Counted from the first letter of the whole stretch, positions 5,501 through 52,400 are shown. The stretch: DNA of 63,713 nucleotides, filler included, from Kipferlia bialata (GCA_003568945.1; 3 parts of 3 records of this genome joined end to end with filler, not necessarily neighbours in it); one strand, 5' to 3'. Translations and numbers: made by a program. The notes: generated by a model from the letters alone, not told the origin.

Positions 5501-7705
5501 CAGTATCAGACCTTCTTAGAATACAGGCTTAGTAAGCTTACTCACAATGCAGATTGTGACGCCTTACTCCTTCGGGCAATTTGTCGACTTAAGAGCCTCC
5601 GATGGAACACCATTACACACATATGGTGAGTGTAGTCGTGAATTCAGTTTTCTAGTCAGACTGATATTCGTGTTCATGATCATACCTGATCAGGCATCCT
5701 CACATCTAGGTTGTACCACCCTCTACAACTTCAGACTGCATCTTAAGGCCCTGGGATACACGTTCTCTAAGAGCATTGACCCGCACCGTTCATGCTACCA
5801 CTATTCTGACCGTAGTACTAGGAGTGGGGAAGAGAGTAGTGACTCTGGCAGCCTAGTCAAGTACATTGTACAGGACACAGACCCTCTTAGTATTACACCT
5901 GACGTCCTGTTGCCATCGGAAACGGACCTGTCTTCTCCATCCAACACAGTGCCATCCTTGCCGCATTCTCTGTTTGTGAACCCCATTCGCATATGTAGCA
6001 ACACCCAGAGAAAGGACTTTGTATACATCTACCAGACACTGTTAGCGTCCAGCAGCACTAGGTGGGGTGACATCTTTGTTATATGGTTCAACTACCTTAC
6101 TTGTGATGATCGTCCCCCTGTGACTACTATTATTTTGCACGTCCACTTCTGTTCTATATATAGCTATTTCTCAACTCATGCAACAGATGCTGTCTTGCAG
6201 TTGTATAGCTCAAGTAGTATGTCTATTTATCATAGACTTTTGTTATAGTATAGCAAGTATAACTCTCTCCTTCTCTATATAACACTCCCACCCCAGGCAC
6301 TCCATGCAGCAGATGCTGTCTGACGTCCAATACGACACCAGACTATTGATGCATGCCACACACGGATACGGACTCCCGGCTGCTGCAGTCTACCTATTCA
6401 TATGCTCGGGACTACAGGCCACAGGGGTGGCATTGCAGGTGGATACGCATTCATACATCACCAATGCCTAGTGGGTACTCCTCACTCCATTAACCTCTAG
6501 GCATATCTGACATACACCCTATCCCTGGAGGGTATGTACCGTAACAGCCGTCGTCCCTTGTCGTCACAGCACTGTCTAGATACACTGTCCCTGGCCTACC
6601 ACCTAGCACACTCCGTGTCATCAAGCGCTCAGGGTGGTATGTATATGAATAACCACCAGGTGGGTATAAGTCCAACATGTTAGGAAGTCTGAACTGGGTT
6701 AGAAACCTTTGCAGGTTGATTCTCAAGAGTCAGGTTCTAACGCTGCAGTTACTTTACATATTCGTGGCCTGTGTGGCGCTCGGCCTCGAGACTAGTACCG
6801 GTACATATGACGGCAGGGTGTCCACACCCTCATGTCTACACAGGGGAGAGGCGCAATTGAGCCACGCAGCAGGGTGGGTATACTTCTACTCGATACGTCA
6901 TCCTAATGAAACTGTTGTTTGAGTTGACGTTCTCAGAACGTTACTCTCACATGCAGGCTCGCATTGGTAGTGGCTAAGCAGTGTGGTGTGCTCGAATACT
7001 TGCCCCTGGGGTCAAAGGATATCATAAGGGATTTGGTCACAGCTTCGTCCGGTAGAGGTGTCTGTGGCCTTGCAATTGAGGTATGGGTGGTATTTGTGTT
7101 AGCGGTTAGGAAGACTCTTACGAGCAGGTCCAAGCCATGTGTCTATGGTTCGAAAGTCTTTCTGAAGACGATAGGGCAGAAGTGCTGTTTGGAGCGCCTG
7201 AGGTGAGAAGAAGTTGTGTCTATACCTCTTTAGCAGTAAGTGTAACTCTATGACACTCTCTTCAGCGATGGCTGTCCTACTTTACCCTATCAGGTTGAAT
7301 CCACGCTCCCCTCGTGTATATCGTTCCCATACAGTGTGCTGTCCCGGGTCCAGACGGTGCTGAAGAGGGCTATCATGGCTATGGCAGTTAGTGTGCACTG
7401 TGGATCACACAGAGAGGTCCTAGGGTACGTTCTGTAATCATGTACAGATCAATTCTCCTACAAAACAGGTCAGTTAATAGCTGGTCATAGTTATCAATAC
7501 TCTAGGAATATAGGTTTCCCTGACACATAGCTGGATCGAGAGTGAGAAACAAGCGAACGAAGTACACAACCATGCCTACGGAACAGGCATAGAGTGGTTA
7601 GAGTGTGGTGGGTCATGCCGACACACATACACCGCAGCTAGATACAACCCCCTAAAGATACAACTGGCGAGACTGGCAAGGATTCTCAACCTAAAGAACC
7701 TGGTA
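2503..7705 (+). CDS. Multi-exon membrane protein with a highly degenerate C-terminal class I PDE-like domain; boundaries approximate
   Basis: N-terminal exons at 2900-3800 are hydrophobic. Exon 6501-6659 (AYLTYTLSLEGMYRNSRRPLSSQHCLDTLSLAYHL) aligns with the PDE segment TY..TLE..Y....YHN..HAADV.Q. The later IIRDLVTASS matches the 'idlvlaTD' helix. Confidence 0.45.
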
Positions 7706-10490: not shown

Positions 10491-10604
10491 ACAGGTTAAC
10501 TAGGGATACAGGGTGAAAAAGAGCAAGGTGCAATTTGTGACCGTACAACAGGTTAACTAGGGATACAGGGTGAATAAGAGCAAGGTACAATTTGTGACCG
10601 TACA
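10491..10604. repeat. Tandem direct repeat, 2 x 57 bp
   Basis: ACAGGTTAACTAGGGATACAGGGTGAA(A/T)AAGAGCAAGGT(G/A)CAATTTGTGACCGTACA at 10491-10547 and 10548-10604, with 2 mismatches. Confidence 0.95.
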
Positions 10605-10772
10605 ACCAACTGCCACCGATCTGTGTTTGTCAATAAGGGGTTAGACAGTTCGCTGCGAAGTAGCCTCTCTTCTGAGAGTGCATGGGAAAAGCAGGGTAAG
10701 AGAGTGCATTGAATGTCGAGTGAGTAACTGTACAATATTGAGACAGTGATATGTCTCCGGGCAATTCACCAG

Positions 10773-24072: not shown

Positions 24073-24171
24073 NNNNNNNNNNNNNNNNNNNNNNNNNNNN
24101 NNNNNNNNNNNNNNNNTTAATTAATTAANNNNNNNNNNNNNNNNNNNNNNNNNNNNNNNNNNNNNNNNNNN
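24073..24171. other. Artificial contig join: N44-TTAATTAATTAA-N43
   Basis: Six-frame stop linker at 24117-24128 inside an N run. Confidence 0.93.
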
Positions 24172-24277
24172 NCCCCCCCAAATACGACGCCCCCCCCCCC
24201 CCCCCCCCCCCCCCTTTGCCGGTCCAGACTACCTTCCATAGTATATACTGTATATATATATATATATATACTCTAAC

Positions 24278-24734
24278 CTTAGTCTTGGCACCCCTCTCCC
24301 CTTGCTGGTACATACTCTGAGGCAGCATCAGCATATATACCTACTGTATACACAATATATATTAATATACTATTACTATGTACTTACCTTAGTCTTGGCC
24401 TCCTTCCCCCCTTGCTGGTGCATACTCTGAGGCAGCATCAGCATCCAACCTGTTGATGACAAAGAACCTATTGATGACAAAGAACGGAGTGACCATCGGG
24501 GCAGAGGGCTCATTTGGAGGTATGTGCATATATATATAGTGTTTAATTACAATACAACATAGGTATATGTGAATCATTTACAACCACTTAACCCCAGTCA
24601 GCACCTCCTACAATGCTGCTGATGACTCTGATGACTCCAACTGGGGCCCATCCCTCTGGTTCTCGCACGAGGGTATGGATATGTGTACATAATCTCTTTA
24701 CTTAGTAATTAGTAGTTTTGTTGCATACATGTGG

Positions 24735-24771
<37 letters not shown>

Positions 24772-26638
24772 ATCTTCGTGTCTACCCTAGTCTTACCCCT
24801 CAGCTGACCCCGCTCTGTTCACACTGGGAGAGGGCACATCGACATCAGGTATATAGCATATTCATTAGAAACATTGGTATATATAAGTATTTATAATGAG
24901 AGAGTATTTGGATACGTGTTGTATGTCTATTCCTTCTATATAGATTGTTCACACTGGCAGAGGGCACATCGACATCAGGTATATATAGCATATTCGTAAC
25001 TAATATTGGAATATATAGATGTATAATGAGAGAATGTGTATAGATACGTGTAGGATGTCTTTTCTATCTATATTGATTGTTCACACTGGCAGAGGGCACA
25101 TCGACATCAGGTATAGGATTCATATGCATATTTCAATATATATGTATATATATATATAGGTTAGAATCATTCGTCTAGCTATATGTCTACTGGCGCCAGG
25201 TTCGTCCTTCTCCTTCAACTGGTAGTACTATGTGTACTACTTGTATCGATATAGCTATATGACTAAACCCAGGCTCTTCCTTCTCCTTCTCCAATGATAT
25301 CTATCTCTCTCTCTCTCTCTCTATATATATATACATATATACCATATGCAGGCAATATGTAACTGACTCTAGGCTCTTCCTTCTCCTTCACCAATGACGA
25401 TGACAGCGAGGGGGTGCACTACACTAACCGGAGATACAGAATGTACGTGCATATATATCTCTCATGCATCTTTGTCCTTTGAAAGTGTTTGAATCCGTCT
25501 TGTGTCATGTTCAAGCGTTCATTACTGTGTCCTTTGTGGTGTCTCTCTCTCTCTCTCTCTCTCTTTCTCTTTCTCTCAATCGGCAGTATCCCTCTTCTGA
25601 CTCTCCCACCTGGTTACAACGGTTTATCGTATGTTTGACATTTCATTGAATGTGTATGTTTCAGAAGTACTATATGCGTCAGTGTGTACCTAACCCTCAG
25701 CCCCCTTCCTTGCAACAACACTGTGTCTGAGACCACCTACCCATACATATATATATATCAGTTATAAGTCTGACCATTAGCCCCCCACCTGGTAACAACA
25801 CTGTCTCTGAGACCACCTACCCTCTGACAGATGTGGGTGGGACAGAGACTATGTACCTGACAGGGAACGGTTGCACAGGTATACCTATATGTATGTATAG
25901 ATTGCTGTTTACTCTTTACAAGTTGACAGATTCATGTACCTGACAGGGAACGGGTGCAGGTTACTATATATGTGTATAGTACAGATACATATTTACAGAG
26001 CTTCTCTCTTGTTGTATCCTCTCTCCCTCACCCTAGGTGTCTATGCCACTGCTGGCGTCGATGTCACTGACCTTGGCACCAGGGTGGGCACAGTGTTTGT
26101 GTCATACCTCGGTGCAACATATGCCACAGACGTTGCATTCGAGATTGGGTCATGCGCTAGGCTGCTAGTTGATGACAGGTGTGTATCTATACATGTATAT
26201 ATCTTAAATTAGTACATATCTTCTCTATACGAGGTTGGGTCCTGCGCCAGACTGATAGTTGACGATAGGTATGCGTGCGTCTGTGTTTATGCCTCCCTAC
26301 TCTCTCTCTAACCCGTAGGCACATCGACTCCGTCATCTCTTTCTCTCTCTATCCCCCTCTCTCTCTCACAATATGTATGTATATCTCTGACCCCTAGAGA
26401 CACCGACTCCGTCATCACTGATATGACCAATACCTCTCTCTCTATATATGTGTATATACAAATATGTATATATGTGTGTAATCCTAACTCACCTCTAGGG
26501 ATATTGACTCCGTCACCGTTGATGTGACCAATGCATCAGTCCCTCTCTCTACCTCTATGTATACAGACACCTACCTTACCCCTAGAGACATCGACTCTGT
26601 CATCATCGATCTCACCATTGCCTCTTATTCTCTCTCAT

Positions 26639-26684
<46 letters not shown>

Positions 26685-28604
26685 CCTCCCTTACCCCTAG
26701 AGACATCGACTCTGTCATCATCGACCTCACCAATGCCTCTGGGGGTGACGCTGCCTCTGCGTCTCTAGTCCTCGAGGCACTCTTTGCACCCAACGTGGCA
26801 CCCCTGCTCGTGGGGGGGACCAGTGTCACAGCCAGGTATTGCTGTTACTGAATGTCATATATGTATGGTTATAGTGTTATACCGACGTGGCACCCCTGCA
26901 AGGGAGAGGGACTAGTGTATCAACTAGGCACGTCCAGGATATATAGATAGTACATGTAGTAGAGTACGTATGGACCTAATACCTAATACCTAATGTGTTG
27001 TGAGAGGGACCACCGTCACAACTACGTATGCTAATGTGAATGGTATATAATCTAGAACGGTGATTGTATTCACTAACTGTAGAAACATCCAGGGTGGCTA
27101 TGACATGTTTAGTATCGTGTATAATGTGTGTGAGTATTTAGTATTCGTGTGTGTGAATATGTATGTTTCTATATCTACTTACCCCAGGAACATCCAGTGT
27201 GGCAATGACCTCTCCTTCACCTTTGGCACAGAGGAGTACCAGAGGTCACTGTACATCAGCAGTGCTGGCGTGTCATCCTGCATGGGTGTGTATCTGTGTG
27301 TATACATAATGTATGAATATACAGAGATATAGTGATTGTGAGCAGTATAGACCACTGCGCCTTAATGTTAATTAACACTCATCTTCGTGTACAGGTTCCT
27401 CTATTTTGCCCAGTTACCTCACCCTCAGTCTCCTCTGACGATGGCTCAGCCCTCTCTCAGAACAATACCCTTGTGTACGGGTCAGGGGACGTTGCATGGT
27501 GAGATAGTGTATATGTATAGTGCATTCATTCTGACGATATCAGCCTCGGACCTCTTTCTACTCGATGAACACTACGATATATGCGTATATACTGGAAGAG
27601 AGTATGTAATTTTATACCTGCCTATCTCAGCAGTGATGTCTCGGACCCCTCCTTCTCTATATACACTACTTTCTCTCTCTATATATATATGCTACTCATT
27701 ACTAGTGTAGATAATAGTCTTATCCTACGTACTTACCCCAGGGGTGATGTCTCGGACCCTTCCAGCTACTCTCTAGGATTCCCCCAGATGCCCAACTCCC
27801 TTGGAAAGGGTAAGTGCTGGAATCAAGTGTTAAGTAATCTTTTCATACATGTTTAGGGTAATGTGTTTACCTCATGGTTGTATTTAATACGTTTACCCCA
27901 GTTGGCGATCTCGACTTCTCGTGGGTGTACGAGTGTATATGTATTTGTATATATATGTAGTGTGTGTATTATGTATATATATATATATAAATACATACAA
28001 ATGTGTCTTATCCCAGTTGGCGATCTCGACTTCTCCTGGGTGTACAGCCGCAAGGAGTTCGAGGAGTTCCCTCTGGTAAGTGGAGACTTTGCATATATTG
28101 TCTCGGTGTACATATTCTTCTAGTACCACCAGATACTCAAAATAATGTATGTTTCAGTGTATTCACATTGGCATGTTCTTTTAACTAGCAATTCTCTATC
28201 CCTCACCCTTAGGTCATGGACTTCCCTGAGATATACCCCTCCGATGACTTCTGGAACACTATCATGACGGAGGACGCCTCCGAAGGTAAGATTATCACTA
28301 CTATAAATACATTTACATACAGCGTATTCTATAATATACCCCTCCGATGACTTCTGGAACATTATCATGACAGACGACGCATCCGAAGGTACAGCATGCG
28401 TAGTATTAGTGTTGTTCATAGTCTATTTGTGTTTGTACTCTGCACTGACTTACGGGACCACTCTGACAAAGGACTCAATGCATCTTAGTGAGTGCTATAT
28501 ATTTGTGTATATGTAAGTGAGTACTGTATATATGTATAATAGTCTCCCCACCCGTAATTAAAATTGTATATACCTATATTGGAGTGTATCTATCTATATC
28601 TATG

Positions 28605-28660
<56 letters not shown>

Positions 28661-30506
28661 TGTGTATGTATGTATGTATTACTCTCCCTCCCACCCCCAG
28701 ATGACATTGAGTATGCCAATGCCCTTGCCGACCTAGCCTCTCTCACTAGGGTGGTCAGAATGCCAACACTAGGGGTCCAGGGATCAGGTACCAAAATGTG
28801 TATGAGTACACTAACTATACCTATACTGTATATGAACGTATGTTTATATTGATATAGTGTGGTCAGAATGCCAACACTCGGGGTCCAGGGGTCAGGTATA
28901 CATATAGATATATATAGACATACATATATTCATTTGGTAATACATGGAATAGCTAGGATTCCACCGGGTCAGGTAGGGACATGTGTGTAAGTTCGACAGT
29001 CTTCATTCGTATATATTGATCTCTAACACCCAGATGGCACTGAGAACCTCATGATGAACAGTGGACTTCTCAACATCCAGATTGGATCAGGTGGGGAAAA
29101 TACAGTGTCTATATACAGTCAAGTAGTCGTGTTCACACCAGGTGAGCTGGAGCTTGGTGCACTGAGCCGGATGGAGCCCAATCAGATCACAATCTTGACC
29201 AGGTATTGATATGGTATATAGTATTAATGAGTATCTATCCAGCCAGATCACAGTGTTGACCAGGTATAAATATGGATTATAGTGGTTTTGACTCTTTCAG
29301 TACCAAGGAGATATATGTTATCTTGGAGTTCATCTCACCCCAGTTCCTCATGTGCCGATGGGTGCTCCGCATTTGTACTGGGCGTTCAGGAGCAGGTAGT
29401 GTTTCATACTATACATGGAAATATACATGTTGTGACTCTTGGTCTGGATTTACTAACATATCCCTCTCTTCCTCTCTCTCTCTCCCTCTCACCCTACAGC
29501 GTCTAGGCCATTGATGTTGTCACCATTGGTGTTATATACTTGTTTAGTTACATATATAGAGCGTGACCTCACCCGTAGCGTCTAGGCCACGTTGTCACCA
29601 TCGGTTTGGATGGCCAGACCACAGCTGGTGCCAAGGCATCTGTCCTGGAAAGTGTTGGATACTCAAAGTCTCTCACCAACGGTACGAGGATTGATGTGTA
29701 AGAGTAGATGCACATATACATGCACATACTATATATATGTCTCATTCACTGGCTCCCTCAATGGTATAGTGAATATATATGGTAAAGTATTTGAGTGTAT
29801 AAGAGTGTAATCTCTATATCTGTTAGAACCAATTGGTGTATTTACATATTTCGCTGACTCCAGGTATGTACACTGTGCCCCGTGCCGTCACCGCTCCCAT
29901 CGCCAACTACGAGGTACAGTTATGTGTATATTGTATATATATGTATTGTAGTTCCTTTGTGGATCGCGTAGCTATTCTGACCCCTAGGCCTTTGCCGACT
30001 GGCAGAGTGAGACCGACACCCCTCCCTCCATGGTTGGATCCACCCCCTCATTCGCACCCAAGGCAGAGAATGGTACGGTCTCTCTCTCTTTTTCTGAGAT
30101 ACTATTTCTAGGTTCATATATGTTCATCTTTATACTAGTTTCGTCTAAAGTCGGCATTCTTCTTCTCTTCTTGTCTATACCCCAACGCGCTCTTTCAATG
30201 TAGTGTGTCCCATTTCCCATATTACCTATGTGTCTTTGTACCTCACCGTATCTTGATTATTTGACTTATTATAGTTTACTCATATCTCCATTAACTATTA
30301 TTTACCGCAGTGATACCACTGTTTGCATCCAGTGTGGCCACTAACCTCGTACTATTTACGTGTATTATACGTATATTATACTTATATATATCTTCTTATT
30401 AGTTATGTATATTATTTGTGTAGTACTCAGATATATATATAGTTATTAACCCCAGTGATACTCAAGAAGGACATCCAGTGTGGGCACTGTCTCTCTCTCT
30501 CTCTCC

Positions 30507-30545
<39 letters not shown>

Positions 30546-32860
30546 GTCTCGGTTCCTATCCTTACCCCAGTGATCCTTAAGAAGGACATCCAGTGTGGCC
30601 CCAGTTGGCCAACCAACGGTGTGGACTCTGATACCCCCAGTGCTGGGGGACAGATACACGCCACGGCAGTGCTGTACAGCGAGGTAACCGTGTTCCTACC
30701 TCTCCCAATACATCATTCTGATTCCATTTTAATACTAGTAGTACTATTGTGAATATCTTGTAAATATTCCTTACTCCAGGCCAGCCTGACCTCCTCCCCC
30801 CTCCCATCCAACATGGTCACTGGGGCAGAGAGGCTCATCCAGAACAGCGGGGAGGCAACTAGTGAGTGTACGTATGTATAGAATGTATAGATAGTATATA
30901 CTGATCATATATACTGGTACTGATGCTGATGATTATCCGGAACAGCGGAGAGGCATCTAGTGAGTGTACGTATGTATGGTGTATATATAGATATATAGTC
31001 ACTGTTACTGATACTGAGAGATCCCTCTTCAGAGTGTACGTCACTATTTCAATTCATCTGTGAGATTATACTCCTGAGCGTAGCTATAATACTCCAGACA
31101 CCAATGCCGTCAGACGCATCTTCTACGGCTTTATAAGTGTATATATATATATATATATAGTTATATACGGATACTATAGATGAGATGTCTACTGATCTTC
31201 AGACACCAATGCCGTCAGACGCATCTTCTACAACGCATATGCATATATATGTATATATAGTAATATACAGATACTAGAAATGAGTTGTCTTATACAATGT
31301 ACAATACAATATCTATAGTATTCTAATCTCCAGACACCAATGCCGTCCGACGCATCTTCTACAACGCAGACCTCGACAGCTCTGTCACTGTAGACACCAC
31401 CTCTGACAGTCTGGGTCTCCCATTCACATGCGAGGTATTACAATTATACCAGTATAGTAATAGTATAATGAATATATATATATATATATACATATATATG
31501 CACTGTCACTATAGACACCACCTCTGACAGTCTGGGTCTCCCATTCACTTGCGAGGTTTTATAATAGTTCTATTGTAGTAACAGTATAATGAATATATAT
31601 ATATATACTGTCACTGTAGACACCACCTCTGACAGTCTGGGTCTCCCATTCACTTGCGAGGTAATGCAATGACACATTTTTCAATTTTCATACTACCCTA
31701 CACAGTAACATAGTATTTTCCAGACATGGTAGGCATTTATATGCGAAATAGATCCAAATCATTGCCATTATGCTTCTCACCTCCTTAAACGCCCCAATAC
31801 TTCTCCTCTCACCCCTCCAGCCCGCTGAGGGCGAGACCTCCTACACCGTCAACCTGTGGAGCTGCAGCCCTGGCGAGGGTCTGCGTCTGATGGGCCCCAG
31901 GGCCACCTGTGACTACGAGCCCCAGTCGGTGTGTGCCAACATAGTGCCCACAAAGATGGAGGTATTGTGGCACCTCTCTTGTCTCTGTACTCCAGGATCT
32001 CATCGCTATTTCAACTCTTACTGTAGGTACTCCTCCTGCCTCCTTGCCAATATCAATGTCCTCTCCCTCTCTTCTTATTCTTCTCTCTCTCTCCATCTAT
32101 ATGTTAATATTAATAGTATGTTAATATATTCTTACTGTAGGTCTTCTCCTCCTACCTCCTTGCCAATGTCAGTGTCCTCTATACTCTCTCCTTCTATCTC
32201 TATCTATATGTATATATATCCTCTTATCTCAGGTATATATTCATCCTACCTCCTTGCCAATGTCAATGTCCTCTCTCTCTCTCTCTCTCGGTCTATCTCT
32301 CTGCCCCCTTTAACAGTAGGTCTACTCTTCCTACCTCCTTGCCAACCTCAATGTCCTGGTAGGCATGGCAGCTGTTGCCCTCCTTGGCCTCACCCTCCTG
32401 TCCATGCTGGTGATGGGTGTTACCAAGGCACTCAGGGTATGTAGATGTACTTAGCATATATATTATGTATTATATTGTATTCACCCTGCTGTCCATGCTG
32501 GTGATGGGGGTCACAAAGGCTCTCAGGGTAAGTATATATACTTTCCATTTGTATAATTGTATTGTTGTATACATTTACCCTCCTGTCCATGCTGGCCATG
32601 GGTGTCACCAAGGCACTTAAGGTACCTAGATATATACACACNNNNNNNNNNNNNNNNNNNNNNNNNNNNNNNNNNNNNNNNNAGATATATACACACATGT
32701 ATATAGTGTATCCTCTCTTGTGATATACCCATGCTGGTGATGGGGTTCACCAAGGCACTCAGGGTACGGATATGTATGATAGCATATAATTACTATTATA
32801 TATGTTGTATTCACTTGTGTTATCCATGATAGTGATGGGGGTCAGCAAGGCATTCAGAGC
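24278..32860 (+). repeat. Array of intronic exon-end echo copies (more than 30) in the S41-like gene
   Basis: Examples: donor echoes 24945-24980 and 25077-25112; four acceptor echoes 26315-26620; acceptor echoes 31098 and 31203; donor echoes 31503-31555 and 31607-31660; four donor echoes 32480-32860. Confidence 0.92.
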
Positions 32861-32980
32861 TCGGGAAGATAATTGTATATGTATATATATTTACTCCTGA
32901 TTGTTTTACTAACCCATTAGCGCAAGCGCTCCTGGAATGACGCAGGAAAGGTGGCTCTGGACCTGAGCATCGTTGTATAG
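24393..32980 (+). CDS. Type I membrane protein with a peptidase S41-like domain; more than 20 exons, 5'-truncated
   Basis: IDSVIIDLTNASGG (S41 IIDLRxNxGG motif) and EPNQITILTSSSCADGCSAF...RLGHVVTIG (compare the eukaryotic S41 motif IvILTDG.CASTC..F). C-terminal TM LNVLVGMAAVALLGLTLLSMLVMGV, then RKRSW...IVV*. Confidence 0.7.
32642..32682. other. Assembly gap (41 N)
   Basis: N run inside an echo-containing intron. Confidence 0.98.
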
Positions 32981-33315: not shown

Positions 33316-35228
33316 ATGCAGCAACCTGTGCCAGTGATGTACACCACTCCCCTCCCTACCCAGAGACCCCCTCCTAAGGAGATGTGGATAGTACGTATCA
33401 CACATACACGCCTATCTATATATATCACAACACCAAGTGATACCCGCAAACATGCACTGATTATCAGACATTTAGCGATATCTATATATGGAGTAGAACA
33501 CATACTGCTGTGTTTTGAACTGACTCTTGTAGGTCAATGTCATCTGGTTCTTCAGTATATAGTTGAATATAGTAATGTATATAGTTACATACACGCCCAT
33601 GAATACATATGTTAATATACTCATTGTATTCTCATTGTATTGACTCCTTCAGGCCTATGTCATCTGGTTCCTCTTTGGCACACCTTAAGTAGATGACGTA
33701 CATATCTTCTATTACTGTCACAACACAGCACACATGTATTGACTTCCAGGCCTATGTCATCTGGTTCTTCTTTGGCACATTTGGCTTCCACAGACACTAC
33801 ATTGCATGGCCCGGTGTGTCTGTACCTGGCACTACACTGACTGTCCTCGCTGTAGCCAGCTGTATCCTCAAGTATGGTGCGTAAGAACATTAGTTTTAGA
33901 ATTGTCAATACTATATTAGTCTAAGATTATATTATTATATTATAATGACTATTTGTTTGTTATTCTGTGGCCAGTTGCATCCTCAAGTATGGTACGGTGC
34001 AGAGACATTCTTAGTTGTCTTCTCTAGGCACTCACCTACACTACATAAGGTGTGTCCTCAAGTATGGTGCGTAATAATTCATACACTCTATAGGAGACTC
34101 CTATTATGAGTCAACTTGCTATTAGCAAGTTGCTATACACTATTAGTGGTTGAATCTGTGGGTAGTTGTCTCCTCAAGTATTGTGCCTTGTGTACACAGT
34201 TAGGTGGTGTATATCAGTATACGTATACTATACGACGAACACATTGCGTTGGGTGATGCTCAATTACGGTGCGTATTACGCAGCGTAATTGTGATATGTT
34301 ATCTCTTCTTGTGTGACCCTCTGCTGCACTATACCTGGCTGGAAACTCTAGTGAGGAGGCTAATAGACAGTAGTTTGCCTTTTACTTCGTTAAGATAATC
34401 GTGCCTCACTCACTGTCAGTCTTCTACCGAATCCGACTGGCTCTGTACCTTGGTACAGGAATCCAGAGCGCCATAGGTAACACTAAGTTCTCCACACATA
34501 CATATGGCTGGATGCACGTATGTCACATACAGTTTATGTTGTCAATGACAATACACAGACAGGCTCTTCCTCAGCAAAGACAAACATCATCGCTATTCAC
34601 TCTAGGCATATGGTGGCTCATTGATGCCTGTCTCATTCCAACACTCGTGAACGCCGCCAACTTACAGGTAATATCACTCAGTGTTCAGACCAAATAGAAT
34701 TTAATTGAATAGTAGAATTACGTATAGATTGTTGTTTCCCACAACAAGAACCTGAGTGTGACATGTATATGGGAACCATTGGGTCTTTGATAGATAGTAT
34801 CTTCTTTTGCCTAGGAAAGATCTTGACCCCCAGACACAGGGACCTCCAGTCAAGACCGCCATTGTCGGTGGTGTTGCAACGGTAAGTGCGGGATCATTCG
34901 TATGACAATATATGTGACTTACCCCAAGGACTACCCCTCCTACCCACCCACCATGGGACAGCAGCCCCCACGCAACGCTGTTCTCAACTCTCAGCCCATG
35001 CCGCAGCCCCAGCCACCTGCTAACCCATATGCCCCTGCCACCGGACCTAACCCCAATGTTACTGCTAACCCATACCCTAGTGCACAGCCCAATCACTACC
35101 ACCCTCAACAAGAGCAGTACCCTGCTACTGAGGGACCGTTTGTGCAGCCTGTCACAGGATATGCCCCTGCTCCTATGCCTGTGGTACCAACATATGACGC
35201 TCCACCTCCAGCCAATGGTATGCAGTAG
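33316..35228 (+). CDS. TM2-domain membrane protein with a Pro/Tyr-rich C-terminal tail
   Basis: KEMWI|AYVIWFFFGTFGFHRHY (TM2 motif AY.LW.F.G.FG.HRFY) and GIWWLIDACLIPTLV. Last exon is DYPSYPP...NGMQ*. Confidence 0.82.
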
Positions 35229-38600: not shown

Positions 38601-41184
38601 CGTGCTACAGAGAATGATGCGTCCTGCGTCGTGTCCATACTCCCCATCTCACAATGCTCTAGACCCAGATGCACATCGTAAGACATTCATGAGCATGTGG
38701 GCTCTGGAGGAGCGGGAGAAGCCACCTAGGCTGCCAGCGGACATGTTTAGGAGGTCTCCAGTTGTAACGTGTGACCATTGCGTTGACCAGCTGCTGATCA
38801 AGTACCACAAAATGTCAGGTAGGTTGTATGCTACATTATACCTGTATGTTCCAATATCCATAATGTACATCTCTCACCTATATGTATAGATTACTAATGA
38901 CAGTGAACAAGAAGATACGAGCCTCGCTTGTGAACGCTGCAACGAATGAGAACTTCGATGCAGCTCTGTTTGACAAGCAGCTAGGAGGCTTTGGATTCGG
39001 GTGAGACTCAATGATACACTCCACCACATTAAGCGAATCACGTTTAGCTAGTCAACGACTACTGCAAAGTGAAGAATTGACTATACGCACATCTAACGTC
39101 AGATGGTTGTATATCTTTGTCCACATCCAGCACTATGTGTTGAACCCTGGCCCAATGCGAGTGTCACTAAGGGACTTGGTTAGGCTGTTGTTCACTATTT
39201 ACAGGTAAGTGATTTATAGTTGTATTGAAATTTTTATCTCTTTCTTTTATTTTCATTCACTGGTAACACAACTTGGAAATTGAACCACGGTCTCTGAGTG
39301 TCTCTCAGTAAGACTCTATCTCTGTCAACACAACTGCGATTCGACGCCTGTGATTGAGGCACCTTCCGTACCCCTTACCCTAGTCTGCACCGCAACAACC
39401 CCTTTCATAACGCCATTCACTCCTTGGACACGCTCCAGATATCTCTTGTGATGATGTACAGTATAGAGAAGTGTCCGGGAGGCACTGTGTGGATGCCGTC
39501 AGTGCTACGGGCACTCACTATGCTATCAGCAGTGTGTCTCAACATAGACCATCCTGGTCTGTCTAAGGTATCATACACTGGTACTAATATTGATCACGAC
39601 ACTGATACTATTGATGATCCCGATCCTGATCCTGATACTGGTTCTGAATCAGAACTTCTGAGCCTGACGTTGATACAGTCTCTATCAACTTGATACTGAC
39701 ACTGATGCAAGGACTACCTAGTGGGTACTGATAACCCTGTGGCCACAGCCTATGGCAGAGAACGTCCTATCCAAATGCAGGTCAGTCTTCACAGAGGATG
39801 CATACTTCACTGCGGAAGACTCTTTGCCCATGAACGGTCTCAACATGTACCTCATATATGTGATCATGTCTCACTCTAGGCATCAACCCTCGCTGCAGCT
39901 GTGTTCCGCGGCTGCAACATACTCCCACGGTCAACTGTGGAGATCAACCTCGTCAGAGACCTGATTGTGTCTACGAGCTGTCATAGTGCCAGGGACACTC
40001 TCTTCCAGCTACGTAGACTCACTGCTCTGCCATATACTCCAGCTCCGTGGAAGGAGAATGAGCTAGTCTCTGCTCTGGTAGATAGAGAGAATGGGCTAGG
40101 TATACTATACATATTCATATGTATGTGTATTTGCACTATGTAATCTATATTCTGTAACAGCACTGACTACAGGACATGTGCAGTACTTGACTGCAAGATC
40201 CGTGCTCATGGTGGCATCTATGGGCTGTATGGCAAGAGAGTGGCCCATAGCCGAGGTAGGTGATCTTCGCAGTAAAGCAAGCGAGATTCTTCTTTAGTCT
40301 CTAAATCCATTGCTTGTGCTTCCTCTAACCACTGGTGTTTGGCATGCAAAGACTGAGATATATTCATTGCTGGAACTAACCACAGGTCTTTGGCAGACTG
40401 AGGATGAGGGAGGAGTATGCCTCTGGTGCACATGAGGCAGATGCAGGGCTGATAGTGCCTCCATGTAGGTACGAGACCCAACGCCTCTCTCTACTAGAGT
40501 TGCAGGAGTGTATACGAGCCTTACTCCAAGTATGAACTTTCGCTGTAACCTTCAGGATGCTGCAGATGAACCACAGCACCGAGCTCGATGCAGCCATGTA
40601 CCAGGCAGAGTATGTGAGGGAGAAGGTATATATATATGGTATAAATACATTATAGAAAGTAACACATATTGATATATAATACAATATAATATACAATAAT
40701 GTGTATAATAGTATATAGTAATGTATAATGATGTATGCCATGTACCAGGCAGAGTACATGAGGGAGAAGGTGCTGCCCCATGTGAATATAGTATATATAG
40801 TATATATAGTATATATATATTATATAGTGAACATGAGGGAGAAGGTGCTGATACTATAATACATATTGATATATAATACATTATAGTATTTTATAATGTA
40901 TATAATATATAATGTATATGAGGGAGAAGGTGCCCCATGTCAAGAAATACACCCACCACATATATATAGTATATATATGCAGCGCAAATTTATTAATAAT
41001 ATACAATATATATAGATTTCATTAATAGGAAATATATATTAATACGAAGGTGCTGCCCCATGTCAAGACATACACCCACCACATGCGGAGACTGGGAATT
41101 AGGGGTGCAGAGCTGGTGGGGGAGAGGCTGACAGAGAGGGCAGTTAGGAACAGGGAGAGGTGGTTGCATTGTAGTAGCCAATAG
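35651..41184 (+). CDS. Multi-TM protein with a C-terminal class I cyclic-nucleotide PDE domain, likely catalytically dead; start approximate
   Basis: N-terminal TM ORF 35803-36954. Later motifs NNPFHNAIHSLDTLQ, SAVCLNIDHPG, LVRDLIVSTS, VLMVASMGCMAREW, EEYASGAHEADAGL and RNRERW follow PDEase_I order. Confidence 0.75.
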
Positions 41185-41681
41185 TAGCAGGCCTTTCTTC
41201 GGCTCAGCGGTTAACACCACAGCATCAAGGAGGGTGTGAGATATAGACACCCTATCTCACTATATCTCACTACATCATATATGGTCCACGTCAAACTATA
41301 CAGAGTGATACCCGAAGTAATTGAATAATACATGCGACACAGTGTGAGATTGTACGGTGCATATGGGACCTAGTCATTCTCAGCAAGCATTATAAGACAC
41401 CGTCACAGTGTTAGGTTGCAATGAGAGAGACAGAGGCAAGTAATGACATTGTCACATCGGGTTTCACCAAACATTGTCACTGTGTCACAGTGACAATGTT
41501 GTCGTGGAAACAAAAAAATTACAGACCCTTTAGTCAGCTCCCTGCCTGTTTGGTGGCCAGGAAGCCTCTCTCCTCCAAAGGCCTCTGTTAGAGACAGAGT
41601 GACCTCATCAGCTTCATACCCACACCAATAAGGAGCCCTGCACTACTTCTATCTAGCTAGTGCAGCCGTTATTGTATCTAG

Positions 41682-44800: not shown

Positions 44801-46397
44801 CGCCCTATACGATGGCACCCAGGCAGGCGGGGGTCTGACTTCGCATCTGGAGACGGTGGGAGCTGCGCTGAGGGGGATCAGGATAGAGAGGGAGAGAGAT
44901 GCCTGGAGTGTTGCCCCAGCAACCCCAGCAAGGGTGACACCCACAGCCACAGCCAGTATCAGAGGGGTAGACAGGGGCACATCCAGTGGTATAGACAGAG
45001 GCAGTGTCGGTGACAAGGGAAGAGGTGGCCTGAGGGGGAGGGTGTCCGATCGGACCCAACCCCAACCCCCCACTGTCAGTGGTGGCAAGGCCACTAGTAG
45101 TGGTACCCCCCAGTCTGTGTCTGATGGACATGTCAAGGGTAGGAGTGTGGGTATGGGCCAGTCCCCAGGCTCAGTGGGTCAGTCTGTGCCCCAGACAGGT
45201 GTCAACGGAGGGCTAGGGGGGAGGCAGGCCGGCAAGGGACGGGGTCGCAACACCAGCAACAGCAACACGGGTGCACGCACTCCTGTCCCGTCATTCAGTC
45301 AGAGCACGGGTGGAGTAAGGGTGTCTGCCACCCCGGTGACAGGCAAGAGAGGGACTGCCAGGGCTACACCTAGGACCACCCCTAAGTCCACTGGCAAGGG
45401 AACCGCTAAGACCACTCCTAAGGCTGCTCCTAAGACTCCTAAGATGACTGGTAGGGGAACCCCTAAGACTGCACCTAGCAGCACTGGTAAGACCACTGGT
45501 AAGACCACTGGTAAGACCACTCCTAAGAGCACTGCCCCTAAGAGCACCCCTAAGACCACTCCAAAGAGCACCCCTAAGGACACCTCTCAGGGGGCGGGCA
45601 CTGCCAGCAGGGGCAGGGGAAGGAGGGGTAGGGGAGGGGCCACCAAGGGCCAGAGTACGCCCAAGGGTACTAGTACTAGTACTGCCAGGCTGGGCAAGGG
45701 GGCAGGTAAGGCCCCCCTATCTAGAGGCAATGGACAGGGACAGAGACAGGGTGTGGGATGCGTCGACGTCAAGAGAGAGGACCTAGGCCCCACCCCTGCG
45801 GCACGTGCAGTGGCCAGGGCCCACTCTCCCTCTGCCTCTGTGTCAGTATCTGTGGCACCACACTCACAGTCTGGGACAGGCCTGAGGCCTCCAGGGGAGA
45901 GGCCAGGCTCCAGAAAGAGAGACAGAGAGAGAGAGAGAGAGCAGGAGTGCGTCGGCAGGAGGTGGACTCCTTCGTCTATTCCTCCTATGTCTAGCAGGGA
46001 TGGGGATGGATCCCGGCCGAGGCCTCTGTCGGGTACCGGGAGTACAGGGATTACAGTGCCCGGGAAGATGGATGGGAGGGAGAGAGAGAGATACCCGTCT
46101 GCAGAGAGGATTGGTCGAGGTGACAGGGATGTAGAGATGGAGAGGGGGAGGGATAGGCGTTCAGACGTGGACAGGGGTTGGGATGTTAGGTATGAGAACT
46201 CTCGAGAGCCTGTTAGAGAGAGGCATAGAGACTGGGGTAGAGACAGGGACCTAGGGTGGGATAGCTACCGCTCTAGAGAGAGAGAATGGGATAGAGCCGA
46301 TTGGGCTCGACGTGGGGAGTCCGAGAGACGATATGTGCCCCCAAGGTCGAGAAACGCAGATCGGGAGGGTCGATATGAGGGGGGCAGAAACCGATAG
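41682..46397 (+). CDS. PHD-finger protein (MLL/trithorax-type PHD cluster) with coiled coil, TPK repeats and an R/D-rich tail
   Basis: CCLC...CSC..AH.SC...WRCPSCRKCE|CCG...W...THCNTC...GNYCPSC...RCPVC...HRQC...CPYC resembles the MLL PHD2-PHD3 pattern ending in GNFCPLC. No SET domain seen. Confidence 0.72.
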
Positions 46398-46717: not shown

Positions 46718-47586
46718 TCACTCCTTGATGCTGTTACTCCGCTTCCTGTGCTTCCGTCTCTTCTCCTTGACAGGCCCAGAGGGGGGGGCGCTAGGGGGGG
46801 CGCTGGGAGGAGCGGTAGGCTTGCTAGGGGGAGCAGTAGGCTTGCTGGGGGGAGCAGTAGGCTTGCTGGGGGGAGCGGTAGGCTTGCTAGGGGGAGCGGT
46901 AGGCTTGCTAGGGGGAGCGGTAGGCTTGCTGGGGGGAGCGGTAGGCTTGCTGGGGGGAGCGGTAGGCTTGCTAGGGGGAGCAGTAGGCTTGCTAGGGGGA
47001 GCAGTAGGCTTGCTAGGGGGAGCGGTAGGCTTGCTAGGGGGAGCGGTAGGCTTGCTAGGGGGAGCAGTAGGCTTGGTTGATGCGGTGGATTCAGTCTGTG
47101 CTTCTTCAGTGAGACCTGACTCCGTCTCCGTCATGTCGCCCATGAGTATCTGGTCGATGAGGGCCTGCGTCTCGGCCTCCTTCTCTGATACCTGGTCTGA
47201 TACCTGGTCTGGGGTGGTGTCATGTGAGTCATGTGAGGATGGTAACTGTACATCCCAGGCGGCATCGGCAGCCGAAGCAGCCTGTCTCTCTGTCTCCCTC
47301 GCTGCCTCCTCTAGGGCCAGTTGACGATCCCTCTCTCTCTCCCTCTCCCTCTCCCTCTCTCTCTCCCTCTCTCTCTCCTCCTCCAGTCTCACTTCCTTCT
47401 CAACCTCAGCCTGGATCTCTCTCTGCCTCTCTGCCTCTCTCTGCCTCTCTGCCTCTCTTTCCTCCTGCTCTCTCATCCACTCCGCCTCGGCCTCTCTTTC
47501 TCTCTCTCTCTCCTCCTTCTCTCTCTCTGCATCTATAGCATCCTCTCCCTGCCTATCAGCAGCATCGGCCTCTCCTCGGTACATGC
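46718..47586 (-). CDS. Terminal exon of a hypothetical coiled-coil/Pro-rich protein; upstream exons not present
   Basis: Acceptor CTCACTTTCAG at about 47587-47597, then an open frame to TGA. E/R-rich, followed by KPTAPPS repeats. Confidence 0.65.
46802..47074 (-). repeat. Coding minisatellite, 13 x 21 bp (KPTAPPS)
   Basis: Unit AAGCCTAC(C/T)GCTCCCCC(C/T)AGC; variation is confined to third codon positions. Confidence 0.95.
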
Positions 47587-47799: not shown

Positions 47800-48135
47800 G
47801 TCACCGCCGGTGCCGACAGTGACATGCAGAGCATCCCAGAGGGGCTGGACCAGAGATACATCGGTATGTATAGAAATTATGATATGTATATGTATAACAC
47901 CATTGCATATACAAATACTAATATATGATATGTATATAGTTATTTGTGTATGTATACTCATACCAGTTGTGCACCAGAAGATGTGTTCATTGGTGTATAT
48001 TTACACTCACATATATATATGTATATATGTATATACATACCCTATACATACTCTAACCCCAGTTGTGCACCAGAAGATGCGTCTGGCTGTGTTCATTGCA
48101 TCTGTGCAGACAGCACTGGACCAGATCAGAGACAA
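47800..48135 (+). CDS. Two internal exons of a hypothetical gene (fragment)
   Basis: VTAGADSDMQSIPEGLDQRYI|VVHQKMRLAVFIASVQTALDQIRDK with canonical splice sites, and echoes at about 47963 and 48193. Confidence 0.55.
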
Positions 48136-48241
48136 GGTATATTATATATATATATATATACTGTATATATGTATAGTGTAGTTGTATATATATGCATCGG
48201 TGCAGACAGCACTGGACCAGATCAGAGACAAGGTATATTAT

Positions 48242-49163: not shown

Positions 49164-49475
49164 GGGGAGACAGGTGTCGGTACAGTGGTTCAAGGAATGC
49201 AATAGCGTTCAGTGTAGGAATGTGTGCTTGGCACTGTGATTGAGTGTTTGTTTTGTGTTTTCGAAGACGTAGGAAGAATATATTTGATTGTATAGAGTAA
49301 CCATGGTTAGTATTTGTCTACCCAGCCTTGTGGCTGAGTAAACCCAGGAGTCTGGGTCATGAATAGGTCCTCCGAATATCACATTACATGGTATCTAGCC
49401 CCTTGTGCTACGACACAACAAAAAGAACAAGGTAGAGTCACGGTCAGTGCTTCCTTCAGACCGAGGCCCCCCACT

Positions 49476-52400
49476 ATGTCACTGGGTGGCCTTATCGTGT
49501 CGCTGGCTGTCCTGCTGGCTCTACTGGGAGGCTCGGTGGCACTGGGAGCGGACAGGGACTGTACACAGGACGACCTTGTCCAGGTATGTGCCACAGTAAT
49601 GATGGAGTCGATCATGTCATGTCTGTTCAGGTTGCAGTATGTTATATACATCCCACGTGGAGTACAGAGCCATCGTGGGTTATATATGAATGTATACTGG
49701 ACTCTCTGTTACCAGAACCAAGTACGCAGTTGTATTGATTCTCCATACACCTCTACCCTCAGTATGTCACTGCATGTGAGGAGGGCCAGCAGTACATCAT
49801 CTACGCCATCCCCTCTGCCGCAGAGTGCGTGGAGGGGGAAGGCTTTGTGGTGCCTCCCCCGGTTGGGGTGGAGTGTGGTATGAGGTATCAGTGTTACGTT
49901 GTCATATAGCTAGGGACCCAGACTGACCCTGACACCAGGTGTGACCCAGGTACGTACATTGACACGAGGGAGGGGGACCTGGCCGCAGAGGCTGTGTGCA
50001 CCCCTTGTGAGGGAGACGAGACGTCCATTGGGGGGGGTGATGTCTATGACTTCACCAAGCTGACCTCACTGCCACTGGGCTTCAACACACTCTGCTCCCC
50101 AGGTATCGACTGTATATATATGCAAATGCCACACCATGGGTCTGGTCCCTCTCTCTCCCCCTCTCTCCCCCTCTCTGTTACTTCCTTACTTGGTCTCCAC
50201 TCCATGTCCCTTACCCTAGATGAGACCCTCCCCGAGGGTGCCTCAGGGTGTGGGGAGGGCTGGTCTGTCCAGGACGGGTCTCTCGAGTGCACAGGCACAG
50301 GTATCAGTGTCAGCGCGTGTCTATGCTCTGTATCATACCCTACGTATGGTACTGTCCCCGTCACGCACTCACCCCAGGCCTTGGCTACACCTCCTCCATC
50401 TACTGGACTGCTCTCTTCCTGGTCAATGGAGAGCTCAGGGTGGACTTCCGCACCCTGGCAACGCCCTTGCTGGACCTTCTGGAGGTGCGTGGATTCCCTG
50501 GTGCTGGTTCTCCCTCTCTCTCTCTCTGTGTCCCTTCTGACCCCAGGTCCGTATCAACGGCGTCCTACTCGACAGCCTGTCCAGCGGGGCAGACGTCGGA
50601 GACAGCATAGAGGAGGTATCCACAGACACTATATACACAATGTGTATTACACATGTCCCCGCCCTCCACCCACCCCAGGTGGACTGGACCCGTGCCACCT
50701 ACCCCGTGCCCCCTGGCAAGCACCGCATCGGTCTGTCCTATGCGAATGAGTCAGTGGGGGACCTGCCAGAGCACGACGTCCAGATCAGACGCATAGAGAC
50801 ATACGGCACAGAGGCCCTGCCGGATAGATGCGGGCTGTGCCCCGCAGGCACATCCCCAGACCTAGCCCCCGAGACAGGGCCCGAGGAGGGGGTGGTCTAC
50901 ACGGGTAGCTGCACCCTCTGTCCCAGAGACACCTACTCACTCACGGGGGCTGAGTGTGTGCCGTGTGGAGATGACCAGTACGCACCGGTCGGGTCCAAGC
51001 AGTGCCTAGACAGGTATGTGGGTGTATGTTTATGCTATAGCGTGTGGGTTCGTACAATGATGCAGCTATTGTATCATTTCCCCACCATCAATATAACTCC
51101 CACCCCTAGGCTGGTGCCCTGCACCTCTGATGACTTCACCCCTGTGTATGGGGCATGTACTGAGGGACCAGTGGCATATGTGGGAGAGAGGCACGTGGAG
51201 GGCTTCGTCCCAGTGTTCCCTGTTGTGTGTGATGTCGATGCATACACACACCCTGCCCTGCCCTCAGTGCCATGTTCACTGTGTGAGGGCACACACGTAT
51301 ACGACAGAGAGGCCGGGGAGTGCGTCGAGTGTGAGGCAGGTGGGTCAACCAGGAGTATACCTGAAATGTTTTTTTACACGGTGTGAGCCCATTTCTCTAT
51401 ACCACCTTCGTTCGCTCACCACCCAGGCCAGTTTGGCAACCAGGATACCCACCTGTGCGAGTGGTGTCTGCCAGGCACTGCGGCTATGCCCCTAGTAGCC
51501 TACGAGGCCCTGCCCGCCTTCCCGGACACCTTCACGTCCCAGGTCTCTGACGAGGATGACCTAGGATGGTACATGGGGGGGGAGGGAGAGATTGTGTGTG
51601 GACCGATCCACAGGTGGGGGTTGGTGTGGATGTATCCCTGTTACTCACTGTTGTCTCTTAATACTATACTATAACCCCCCTCCCCTCCCTAATGATGCAG
51701 GAGTGGTCAGTATGCCTCCCTTAGCATCGATGTCCCAGCTGGGTCCACCTCTGTGGCCATCGACATAGACACAAGGTGCCCGGTGGGGGACCCAGACGTG
51801 GTGGCCCAGTGCAATGTCAACCTGGGTGGGTGCTGATGATATGGATGTGGATTTGGATGTGGGTTGATGACCATACCCCCCCCCCCCCCCTCCCCTCACC
51901 GCCAGGTGTCTCTGTACTGTTGAGTGGCCTCCAGCCCATAGCTGTGGTGGCTGCCAATGCCGTCTCCACCGTGACCACCCCTGTGTCCACCAAGAACAGA
52001 CACACCCTGACAGTCAGGGTGGCCAAGATCGGCTCAGATATGCAGGGTACGGTGGGGGCGGGTATCGGCTCTCTATACTCTTATGCTCTTCTGACACAGG
52101 TACCGATGGAGACAAGATACTCGATATGGTCGTGTCCGTTGGAAAGGTGCGTTGCCGATGGATATGGTGTTGTATGGTATAATATAGTGTAATATTCCCT
52201 GGCCTGTGTAAGCCTTTGATATCTACCCCCCAGGTTCTGATATATGGTGGTCAGAGTGTGGAGTGGCCTGGGGACCGGTGCACCACCTGTCTGCCAGGGA
52301 CGTACTCCTACGTAGATGCCACCCTTGAGTACATGGCACAGCACGCACCCTATACAGTGACCGAGATTGGTGACACCTCTGTCTCTGCCACCCAAACGGG

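Follow-up and report, generated by a model that had tools for sequence, protein, structure and literature searches.

The window analysed here is a stretch of 63,713 nucleotides (nt) from Kipferlia bialata (assembly GCA_003568945.1), a free-living relative of Giardia; it joins three parts of the assembly end to end with filler. The DNA is intron-rich and eukaryotic, with a GC content of about 49%. Our subject is one gene on the plus strand, gene 1, together with the short copies of its exon ends that lie within its own introns, which we call echoes. Acceptor echoes are copies of exon starts and lie upstream of the exon, and donor echoes are copies of exon ends and lie downstream. An earlier note on this DNA had stated that echoes diverge from their exons mainly at synonymous positions, as if under coding selection. 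We rebuilt gene 1 as follows, with exon 24 placed by the reading frame only.

24393..32980, plus strand: gene 1, 24 exons, 744 open codons with the sole stop at the end
24393-24519, 24598-24672, 24804-24848, 25373-25442, 25781-25878, 26037-26178, plus strand: exons 1-6
26701-26835, 27188-27285, 27414-27498, 27742-27809, 28017-28075, 28213-28285, plus strand: exons 7-12
28701-28787, 29034-29202, 29344-29395, 29579-29681, 29864-29913, 29988-30072, plus strand: exons 13-18
30571-30683, 30780-30861, 31334-31434, 31821-31961, 32320-32436, 32921-32980, plus strand: exons 19-24

The 5' end of the gene is missing, as it falls in the assembly gap at 24073-24172. The encoded protein has a single hydrophobic helix near its C-terminus (hydrophobic windows start at 690-706) and is predicted to be membrane-anchored. 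Exon 1 contains an in-frame tandem repeat at 24449-24487, with a unit of 18 nt and the peptide NLLMTK twice.

A codon-blind, ungapped scan of all gene 1 introns with a score of at least 12 reveals 35 echoes of 14-56 nt at 21 of the 47 exon ends, spaced about 100 nt apart (61-146). Gapped or decayed echoes below this score (such as those near 465, 545, 800, 34250 and 63300) were left uncounted. The echo units account for 3477 of the 6353 intron bases of the gene.

24283..24334, plus strand: acceptor echo of exon 1, 52 nt, 5 differences
24946-24978 and 25078-25110, plus strand: two donor echoes of exon 3 with a common inner edge, GT kept in both
25202-25217 and 25273-25297, plus strand: two acceptor echoes of exon 4
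25605-25620 and 25701-25742 (acceptor), 25934-25958 (donor), plus strand: echoes of exon 5
26227-26268, plus strand: donor echo of exon 6; five synonymous differences, I>V and L>I; GT kept, flank not alignable to that of the exon
26321-26337, 26398-26437, 26500-26537 and 26586-26625, plus strand: four arrayed acceptor echoes of exon 7; AG and branch motif present in all four
26882-26918, plus strand: donor echo of exon 7, GT lost
27084-27104, plus strand: acceptor echo of exon 8
27633-27652, plus strand: acceptor echo of exon 10
27902-27930, plus strand: acceptor echo of exon 11
28334-28388, plus strand: donor echo of exon 12, 55 nt, 4 differences, unrelated flank
28855-28895, plus strand: donor echo of exon 13, one of the pairs cited in the earlier note
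29244-29263, plus strand: donor echo of exon 14
29500-29530, plus strand: acceptor echo of exon 16 with a 4-nt insertion
30326-30339 and 30456-30484, plus strand: acceptor echoes of exon 19
30935-30959, plus strand: donor echo of exon 20, flank alignable
31098-31126 and 31203-31237 (acceptor), 31500-31555 and 31608-31660 (donor), plus strand: echoes of exon 21
32028-32062, 32141-32178 and 32238-32272, plus strand: three acceptor echoes of exon 23, all stopping at exon base 38
32481-32527, 32577-32617, 32729-32763 and 32823-32857, plus strand: four donor echoes of exon 23, GT lost in the farthest

Up to five versions of one exon end are found in an array, and the insertions and deletions in echoes (-3, -10, +1, -1, +4) show no in-frame pattern. 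In intron 6 (26179-26700) a donor echo is followed 50 nt on by an acceptor echo, which gives a miniature exon 6-7 junction with a GT-AG intron of its own; judging by its sequence, this could be removed first as a nested intron.

All six echo-exon pairs cited earlier reproduce exactly: the differences are synonymous in 5 of 5 cases for the echo at 32483-32527, in 2 of 2 for 28859-28895 and in 3 of 3 for 30456-30484; the echo at 26231-26268 has five synonymous differences plus I>V and L>I, and those at 31098 and 31203 each carry CGA>AGA. The unbiased scan confirms that divergence is mainly synonymous, but the bias is weaker than the hand-picked pairs implied. The 35 gene 1 echoes hold 107 differences in 1163 sites, of which 62 are synonymous and 45 non-synonymous, distributed over the three codon positions as 26/18/63. 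The ratio of the proportions of non-synonymous and synonymous sites that differ (pN/pS) is 0.24-0.33 (kappa 1-8), and the corresponding ratio of substitution rates (dN/dS) is about 0.27, with P between 1e-8 and 1e-12 against dN/dS = 1. Leaving out the six cited pairs (29 echoes remain) gives 46 synonymous and 41 non-synonymous differences, a pN/pS of 0.30-0.40 and P ≤ 1e-5 against 1. Six other genes in the window contribute 17 echoes with 12 synonymous and 13 non-synonymous differences (pN/pS 0.36, P = 0.01 against 1). Over all 52 echoes of the window dN/dS is 0.28 (family bootstrap 0.22-0.38). The 44 amino-acid changes in gene 1 echoes are more conservative than random (P = 0.003), and there are no stops where about 1.2 would be expected. 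Base or context composition is rejected as a cause, as same-base, dinucleotide and trinucleotide nulls leave the ratio at 0.27-0.28.

A value of 1 is nevertheless the wrong yardstick. The premise that dead copies give a dN/dS near 1 does not hold, because the working exon itself keeps collecting silent changes: a dead copy gains silent differences through both lines and replacement differences through one, so that the correct null is about 0.5. The window-wide ratio lies below this value as well (bootstrap over 32 families, P = 0.0006), and the excess holds firmly in gene 1 and in arrays (P = 0.001). Within arrays the ratio is lowest, at 0.17, in the echoes next to the exon. We simulated plain duplication with the same families and the same trimming and obtained a ratio of 0.54 (range 0.30-0.93), with values of 0.27 or less in 1, 1 and 0 of 150 runs. 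A simulation in which echoes are retired working exon ends gave 0.32, with 0.27 or less in 45 of 150 runs. Alignment trimming is already built into the simulation and is therefore rejected as the cause of the low ratio.

The polarity of changes was set by echo rank within arrays; the polarity counts, like those for splice sites and flanks below, cover 48 of the 52 echoes, with four echoes of the gene labelled D excluded. Changes common to the outer echoes belong to the line of the exon, and 11 of these 12 are synonymous, which implies that change on the exon side accounts for part of the silent bias. Changes private to one inner echo are synonymous in 12 of 25 cases against 6.7 expected (P = 0.014). 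Neutral decay since birth is thus not what the echoes display overall (0.28; private changes 12 of 25), and in single echoes and in the other genes it is not rejected.

The splice signals carry a second signature. Of 23 donor echoes, 19 keep GT, and the same share of the acceptor echoes (19 of 23) keep AG. The branch motif YTNAY, defined from gene 1's own acceptors, is found at the usual distance in 16 of 21 echo acceptors and 22 of 24 true sites, compared to 25 of 220 other intronic AGs, and the branch matrix scores of echo acceptors and true sites do not differ (P = 0.55). The motifs are kept but are not the same: 15 of the 16 differ from the motif of their own exon. The fixed T and A match those of the exon in 33 of 42 comparisons, and the free middle base does so in 6 of 21 (unrelated sites 0.24); in the exon 7 acceptor array this base is A, G, C and T in order. 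The distance from branch point to AG equals that of the own exon in 9 of 10 families (chance 0.38, P = 0.001). A motif that is kept but different occurs in 15 of 23 acceptor echoes, and neutral decay of a copied acceptor yields at most 15%. As far as sequence can tell, this is the pattern of related acceptors diverging while both are functional. Marks of past function are accordingly found on both copies: the ratio is below 0.5, the amino-acid changes are conservative, and the branch T and A are kept with the free base changed. Conversion between exon and echo on one chromosome was rejected; its arithmetic gives 0.5-1, and a contiguous tract cannot spare the branch T and A yet alter the base between them.

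Two sequencing runs show where the echoes are present. X1 is a DNA run, perhaps the source of the assembly itself, with contigs that were built separately; X2 is by our guess an RNA run, whose contigs lose rare forms. Contigs from X1 extend across echoes without a single deviating letter, some in pieces of 586-1609 nt, and their depth of 360-440x is normal for the run. Of the gene 1 echoes, 21 of 35 lie inside a listed X1 contig and 18 of 35 are bridged with 31 letters on either side. The N gap at 32643-32683, in the donor array of exon 23, is spanned by an X1 contig that overlaps by 14 letters, and it may be a false gap or conceal a collapsed copy (depth 810). In X2, two spliced contigs cover exons 1-6 in 288 letters and exons 16-19 in 135, exactly the exon-only length, and both carry exon codons. 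The echoes are real DNA and, over exons 1-6 and 16-19, are left out of what is probably the main mature RNA. Echo-only DNA outside X2 cover was not used as evidence; exon 23 is likewise uncovered. In none of 48 echoes does a GT-AG route that keeps the frame and includes a branch motif lead into the transcript in place of the exon end. Unrecognised use in splicing, one of the explanations offered earlier, is not supported by these routes or by the two exon-only contigs. Recursive splicing through the acceptor arrays was also rejected, as reading of the sequence finds no regenerated donor, and so was an origin of gene 1 echoes from junction-spanning cDNA, as donor echoes run on into intron-like sequence.

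We compared 44 flanks of echoes and exons, excluding those with N or out of register. The alignment exceeds the 95th percentile of unrelated introns for 11 of the 44, clearly so for 8, and whole units do not show head-to-tail homology. For the 8 pairs with clearly alignable flanks, flank mismatch (0.216) is about equal to pS (0.205), with pN at 0.047; 10 of the 212 non-synonymous sites differ, where half the flank rate would give about 23. Inner edges are common within arrays (33/33, 38/38/38 and 40/39/40). The spacers have a median of 60 nt, compared to 74-182 nt for echo-free introns, and a TA content of 0.20 per nt, compared to 0.14. Within the window, the 35 spacers give 11 hits, all of them to sister spacers or simple repeats. 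Of the 35 inner edges, 16 abut a dinucleotide run, against a background of 0.28 (P = 0.016); micro-homology is inseparable there from the alignment edge.

We infer that the echoes are former working exon ends of diverged alleles, moved into introns by one-ended repair and unequal exchange, and we give this reading a probability of about one half. Among the explanations offered in the earlier note, capture from diverged functional alleles fits best because of the branch-site pattern, the common inner edges and the lowest ratio nearest the exon. In a first step, a break in an exon would be repaired by copying from the homologous chromosome. Copying would pass the exon end into the partner's poorly matching intron, where homology would be gone after about 40-115 nt, and the copy would then be rejoined in a non-homologous manner, in many cases at a run of TA or CT. 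What stays behind as an echo would be the old exon end, together with either its GT or its branch point and AG. In a second step, the exon end would mispair with an echo on another allele and add copies with the same inner edge, each added copy being a freshly retired working end. Such misaligned exchange would explain why inner edges are common, why some inner copies have alignable flanks and why the ratio is low in the echoes closest to the exon. Having once been a working end, an echo would have remained exposed to selection on both coding and splicing through most of its history apart from the present exon; free decay would date only from retirement and amount to about 4-5% per site. Published work agrees with such a route: Ku-based end joining is reportedly missing from metamonads, which would make them reliant on homologous recombination (PMC8516963); one-sided repair is described for plants (PMC4762383); and K. 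bialata is described as diploid by k-mer peaks (PMC5874029).

Several results weigh against this reading. The other 33 of the 44 flanks align no better than unrelated introns, whatever the identity of the echo and at equal pS, so that intron divergence would have to be deeper than a synonymous distance of 0.2 accounts for. The 29 gene 1 echoes that remain without the cited pairs are only borderline against 0.5 (P = 0.01-0.16), the six other genes do not reject this value (P = 0.26), and gene 1 is the only window gene in which the excess below it is significant. Single echoes (ratio 0.34, P = 0.13) and farthest echoes (P = 0.19) do not reject 0.5 either, and the changes confined to the farthest echo, with 3 of 15 synonymous, resemble neutral ones. 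GT and AG are lost at about the synonymous rate, and the tendency of echo changes to avoid conserved residues is not significant (P = 0.10). On most exons no second allele of at least 90% identity is listed in X1 or X2, so that the donors would be absent from this strain today. Finally, the intron at 40626-41049 (within 40556-41195, plus strand) has three internal pieces (40737-40786, 40831-40850 and 40914-40961) that span an uninterrupted exon-exon junction at an AG|GT site, with filler of 84-90% AT between them. Its sequence fits an origin inside one exon by tandem duplication on the AG|GT model, with the duplicate supplying both splice sites. The copies at 40590-41085 thus indicate that duplication with new filler, which has no intron of another allele as template, also occurs.

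The strongest competitor is a simple local duplication, in which the chromosome copies its own exon end, AT-rich filler arises anew between the copies and the echo is dead from birth; we regard it as possible, at clearly longer odds. The extra silent differences would then come from the exon side, by drift, by replacement with other alleles or by conversion from paralogs, close patches of which exist. The duplication at 40590-41085 is evidently of the filler type, the spacers are TA-richer than echo-free introns (0.20 vs 0.14), the synonymous share of the outer-shared changes (11 of 12) is what change in the exon's line predicts, and the single echoes (0.34) and other genes (0.36) are compatible with 0.5. 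The observed ratio, however, falls in the lowest 1% of the simulation of this process, and 12 of the 25 private changes of inner echoes are synonymous. The acceptors are a further difficulty: copied ones should match at every base and filler-born ones should have random spacing, and neither is seen.

It is rather unlikely that the echoes are in present use as spare exon ends, swapped in at the DNA level by deletion or gene conversion, or included in rare transcripts, and so held under weak selection on coding and splicing. The conservative changes, the absence of stops, the kept splice signals and the strongest constraint in the nearest echoes would be expected of such a stock, and silent-cassette systems are known for proteins anchored in the membrane, as this one is predicted to be. 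The lack of any in-frame route with a branch motif among 48 echoes argues against it, as do the two spliced contigs, exon-only in length and codons, the 4-nt insertion in one echo and the loss of GT in 4 of 23 donors. The variation is biased towards silent changes, the opposite of antigenic cassettes, and a TM2-like gene and a predicted hydrolase carry echoes as well. A rate of collapse high enough to bring echoes under selection would be expected to delete them well before 20% synonymous divergence, and this arithmetic is the one argument against ongoing swapping at the DNA level. Equally improbable, in our estimate, is a genome-wide version, in which echoes with intact splice sites form a living reserve, kept under selection because they are swapped back by DNA exchange, and introns act as a rolling conveyor that builds introns and shuffles alleles.

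Somewhat less probable still is the same capture with sister paralogs instead of alleles as donors. Two full-length hypothetical proteins of K. bialata, P0001 and P0012, are relatives of gene 1; of the 30 hits that exon 22 gave in a profile search, these two alone were analysed further. Word-based protein searches, run with exon 22 and P0001 as queries, found no further relatives, Pfam holds no family for either protein, and a scan of metagenome contigs gave no confirmed locus among 111 pattern matches. At 25837-25851, 26761-26785, 28732-28759 and 31847-31854, on exons 5, 7, 13 and 22, other contigs match gene 1 at 90% or more, with 12 other letters altogether. The depth at these patches in the RNA run is 420-1000, compared to 60-77 for gene 1. 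They therefore probably stem from paralogs that are expressed at a higher level and resemble gene 1 in patches, which gene conversion may have produced. Such patches speak for paralog donors; the excess below 0.5 is clearest in this family gene, and 5 of 19 echo residues equal those of a paralog, compared to 10% expected (P = 0.03, or P = 0.09 if one edge case is dropped), a match that also speaks for retired working ends. The identity of the two named paralogs to gene 1 is, however, only 45% and 37% over about 300 residues, the paralog variant at 28759 is, by eye, not in the echo, and unrelated genes carry echoes too. At the ends of exons 21 and 23, by eye, echoes mostly side with their own exon where the expressed paralog differs.

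An assembly artefact, with alleles or strains placed head to tail, is very improbable: the assembly has gaps, the best DNA run may be its source and the species is diploid by the k-mer peaks reported in the part of PMC5874029 seen, but separately built contigs of 360-440x depth run through echoes without any deviating letter, both sides are bridged for 18 of 35 echoes and an array holds up to five versions of an exon end.

The type of event is known, whereas we did not find the density of echoes, the double signature in coding and splicing or the splicing puzzle in print. Our literature search, with subscription papers mostly outside it, returned no description of echo-like copies in Kipferlia, nor of half-exon copies that occur throughout a gene and show the signs of former function seen here. 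Internal gene duplication was reportedly treated by Gao and Lynch in 2009, as papers citing them relate. Tandem exon duplication with mutually exclusive splicing produces neighbouring exon-like copies with a dN/dS below 1 and kept splice signals. Echoes, in contrast, are half exons of 14-56 nt with one splice site, and the spliced contigs skip them, whereas mutually exclusive exons have both an acceptor and a donor in each copy, with the frame kept. In silent-cassette conversion, as in chicken immunoglobulin pseudogenes, Borrelia vls and trypanosome VSG, unexpressed, stop-free partial copies lie near an expressed gene. Those cassettes vary in amino acids and serve one locus, whereas echoes are mostly silent in their variation (62 synonymous against 45 non-synonymous differences, the latter conservative, hence not amino-acid-diversifying), lie in introns at splice sites and occur in unrelated genes.

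It is established that internal duplications can include splice sites and that introns can be gained by tandem duplication, as the parts of PMC3443670 and PMC4974935 available describe. The tandem genomic duplication of the Rogers model resembles gene 1 in its short tandem copies of a splice site and part of an exon, and the potato RdRp case duplicates an intron 3' end and an exon start (PMC4974935, part). Gene 1 differs in that the copies were absorbed into existing introns and gave no new one, in the marks of past coding and splicing selection and in flanks that are mostly unrelated. The duplicates do not supply both splice sites of a new intron there: the outer sites are used, and none of 48 echoes has a GT-AG route with a branch motif. 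In one-sided invasion repair, for which the part of PMC4762383 seen cites Puchta 1998, the copy starts in homologous sequence, enters non-matching sequence, rejoins without homology and leaves a direct repeat. The plant experiments used engineered targets and Ku-type end joining, whereas the events here would be natural and recurrent, at exon-intron borders, in a lineage reported to be Ku-less.

If the echoes are retired alleles, the genome preserves earlier working exon ends and splice sites as a dated archive, and the allele diversity, outcrossing and repair habits of a protist without population data could be read from it. It would also name a route of intron growth, as echo units make up over half of the gene 1 intron DNA, in what is the sole intron-rich genome of a fornicate described in the portion of PMC5874029 available, and would tie that growth to the reported loss of Ku-based repair in metamonads. 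For splicing, the spliceosome, reported to be reduced to 87 of 174 surveyed proteins in the part of PMC6679479 seen, bypasses up to four near-perfect decoy acceptors or donors and picks the pair closest across the exon. This choice suggests exon definition in an organism with short introns.

Echoes cluster in certain genes, as some intron-rich genes are poor in them: the genes at 49450-53860 and 55990-61490 have about twenty introns each and are almost echo-free (one at 58681). A second gene at 33364-35228 (plus strand) has a TM2 match below the cut-off for 33750-33875. Two acceptor echoes and three or four donor echoes belong to its exon 33750-33876, and a low-depth spliced contig joins 33390 to 33750 and is unspliced back to 33027. 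On the minus strand, the gene at 1-2362 has echoes at 59-91, 356-375, 935-963 and 1048-1077 in its later exons, and by eye near 465, 545 and 800. It has a GxSxG motif and we take it to be alpha/beta-hydrolase-like; Pfam gives no family for its first exon. Isolated echoes lie in four more genes, at 47963-48241, 58589-58723, 6177-6321 and 63240-63330 (the last by eye only). Two coding minisatellites were also observed, a 21-nt Pro/Ser/Lys/Thr/Ala repeat at 46802-47075 (minus strand) and a Lys/Thr/Pro-rich repeat at 45350-45590 (plus strand). At 10491-10606, in intergenic-looking DNA, a near-perfect tandem duplication of 57 nt is free of filler.

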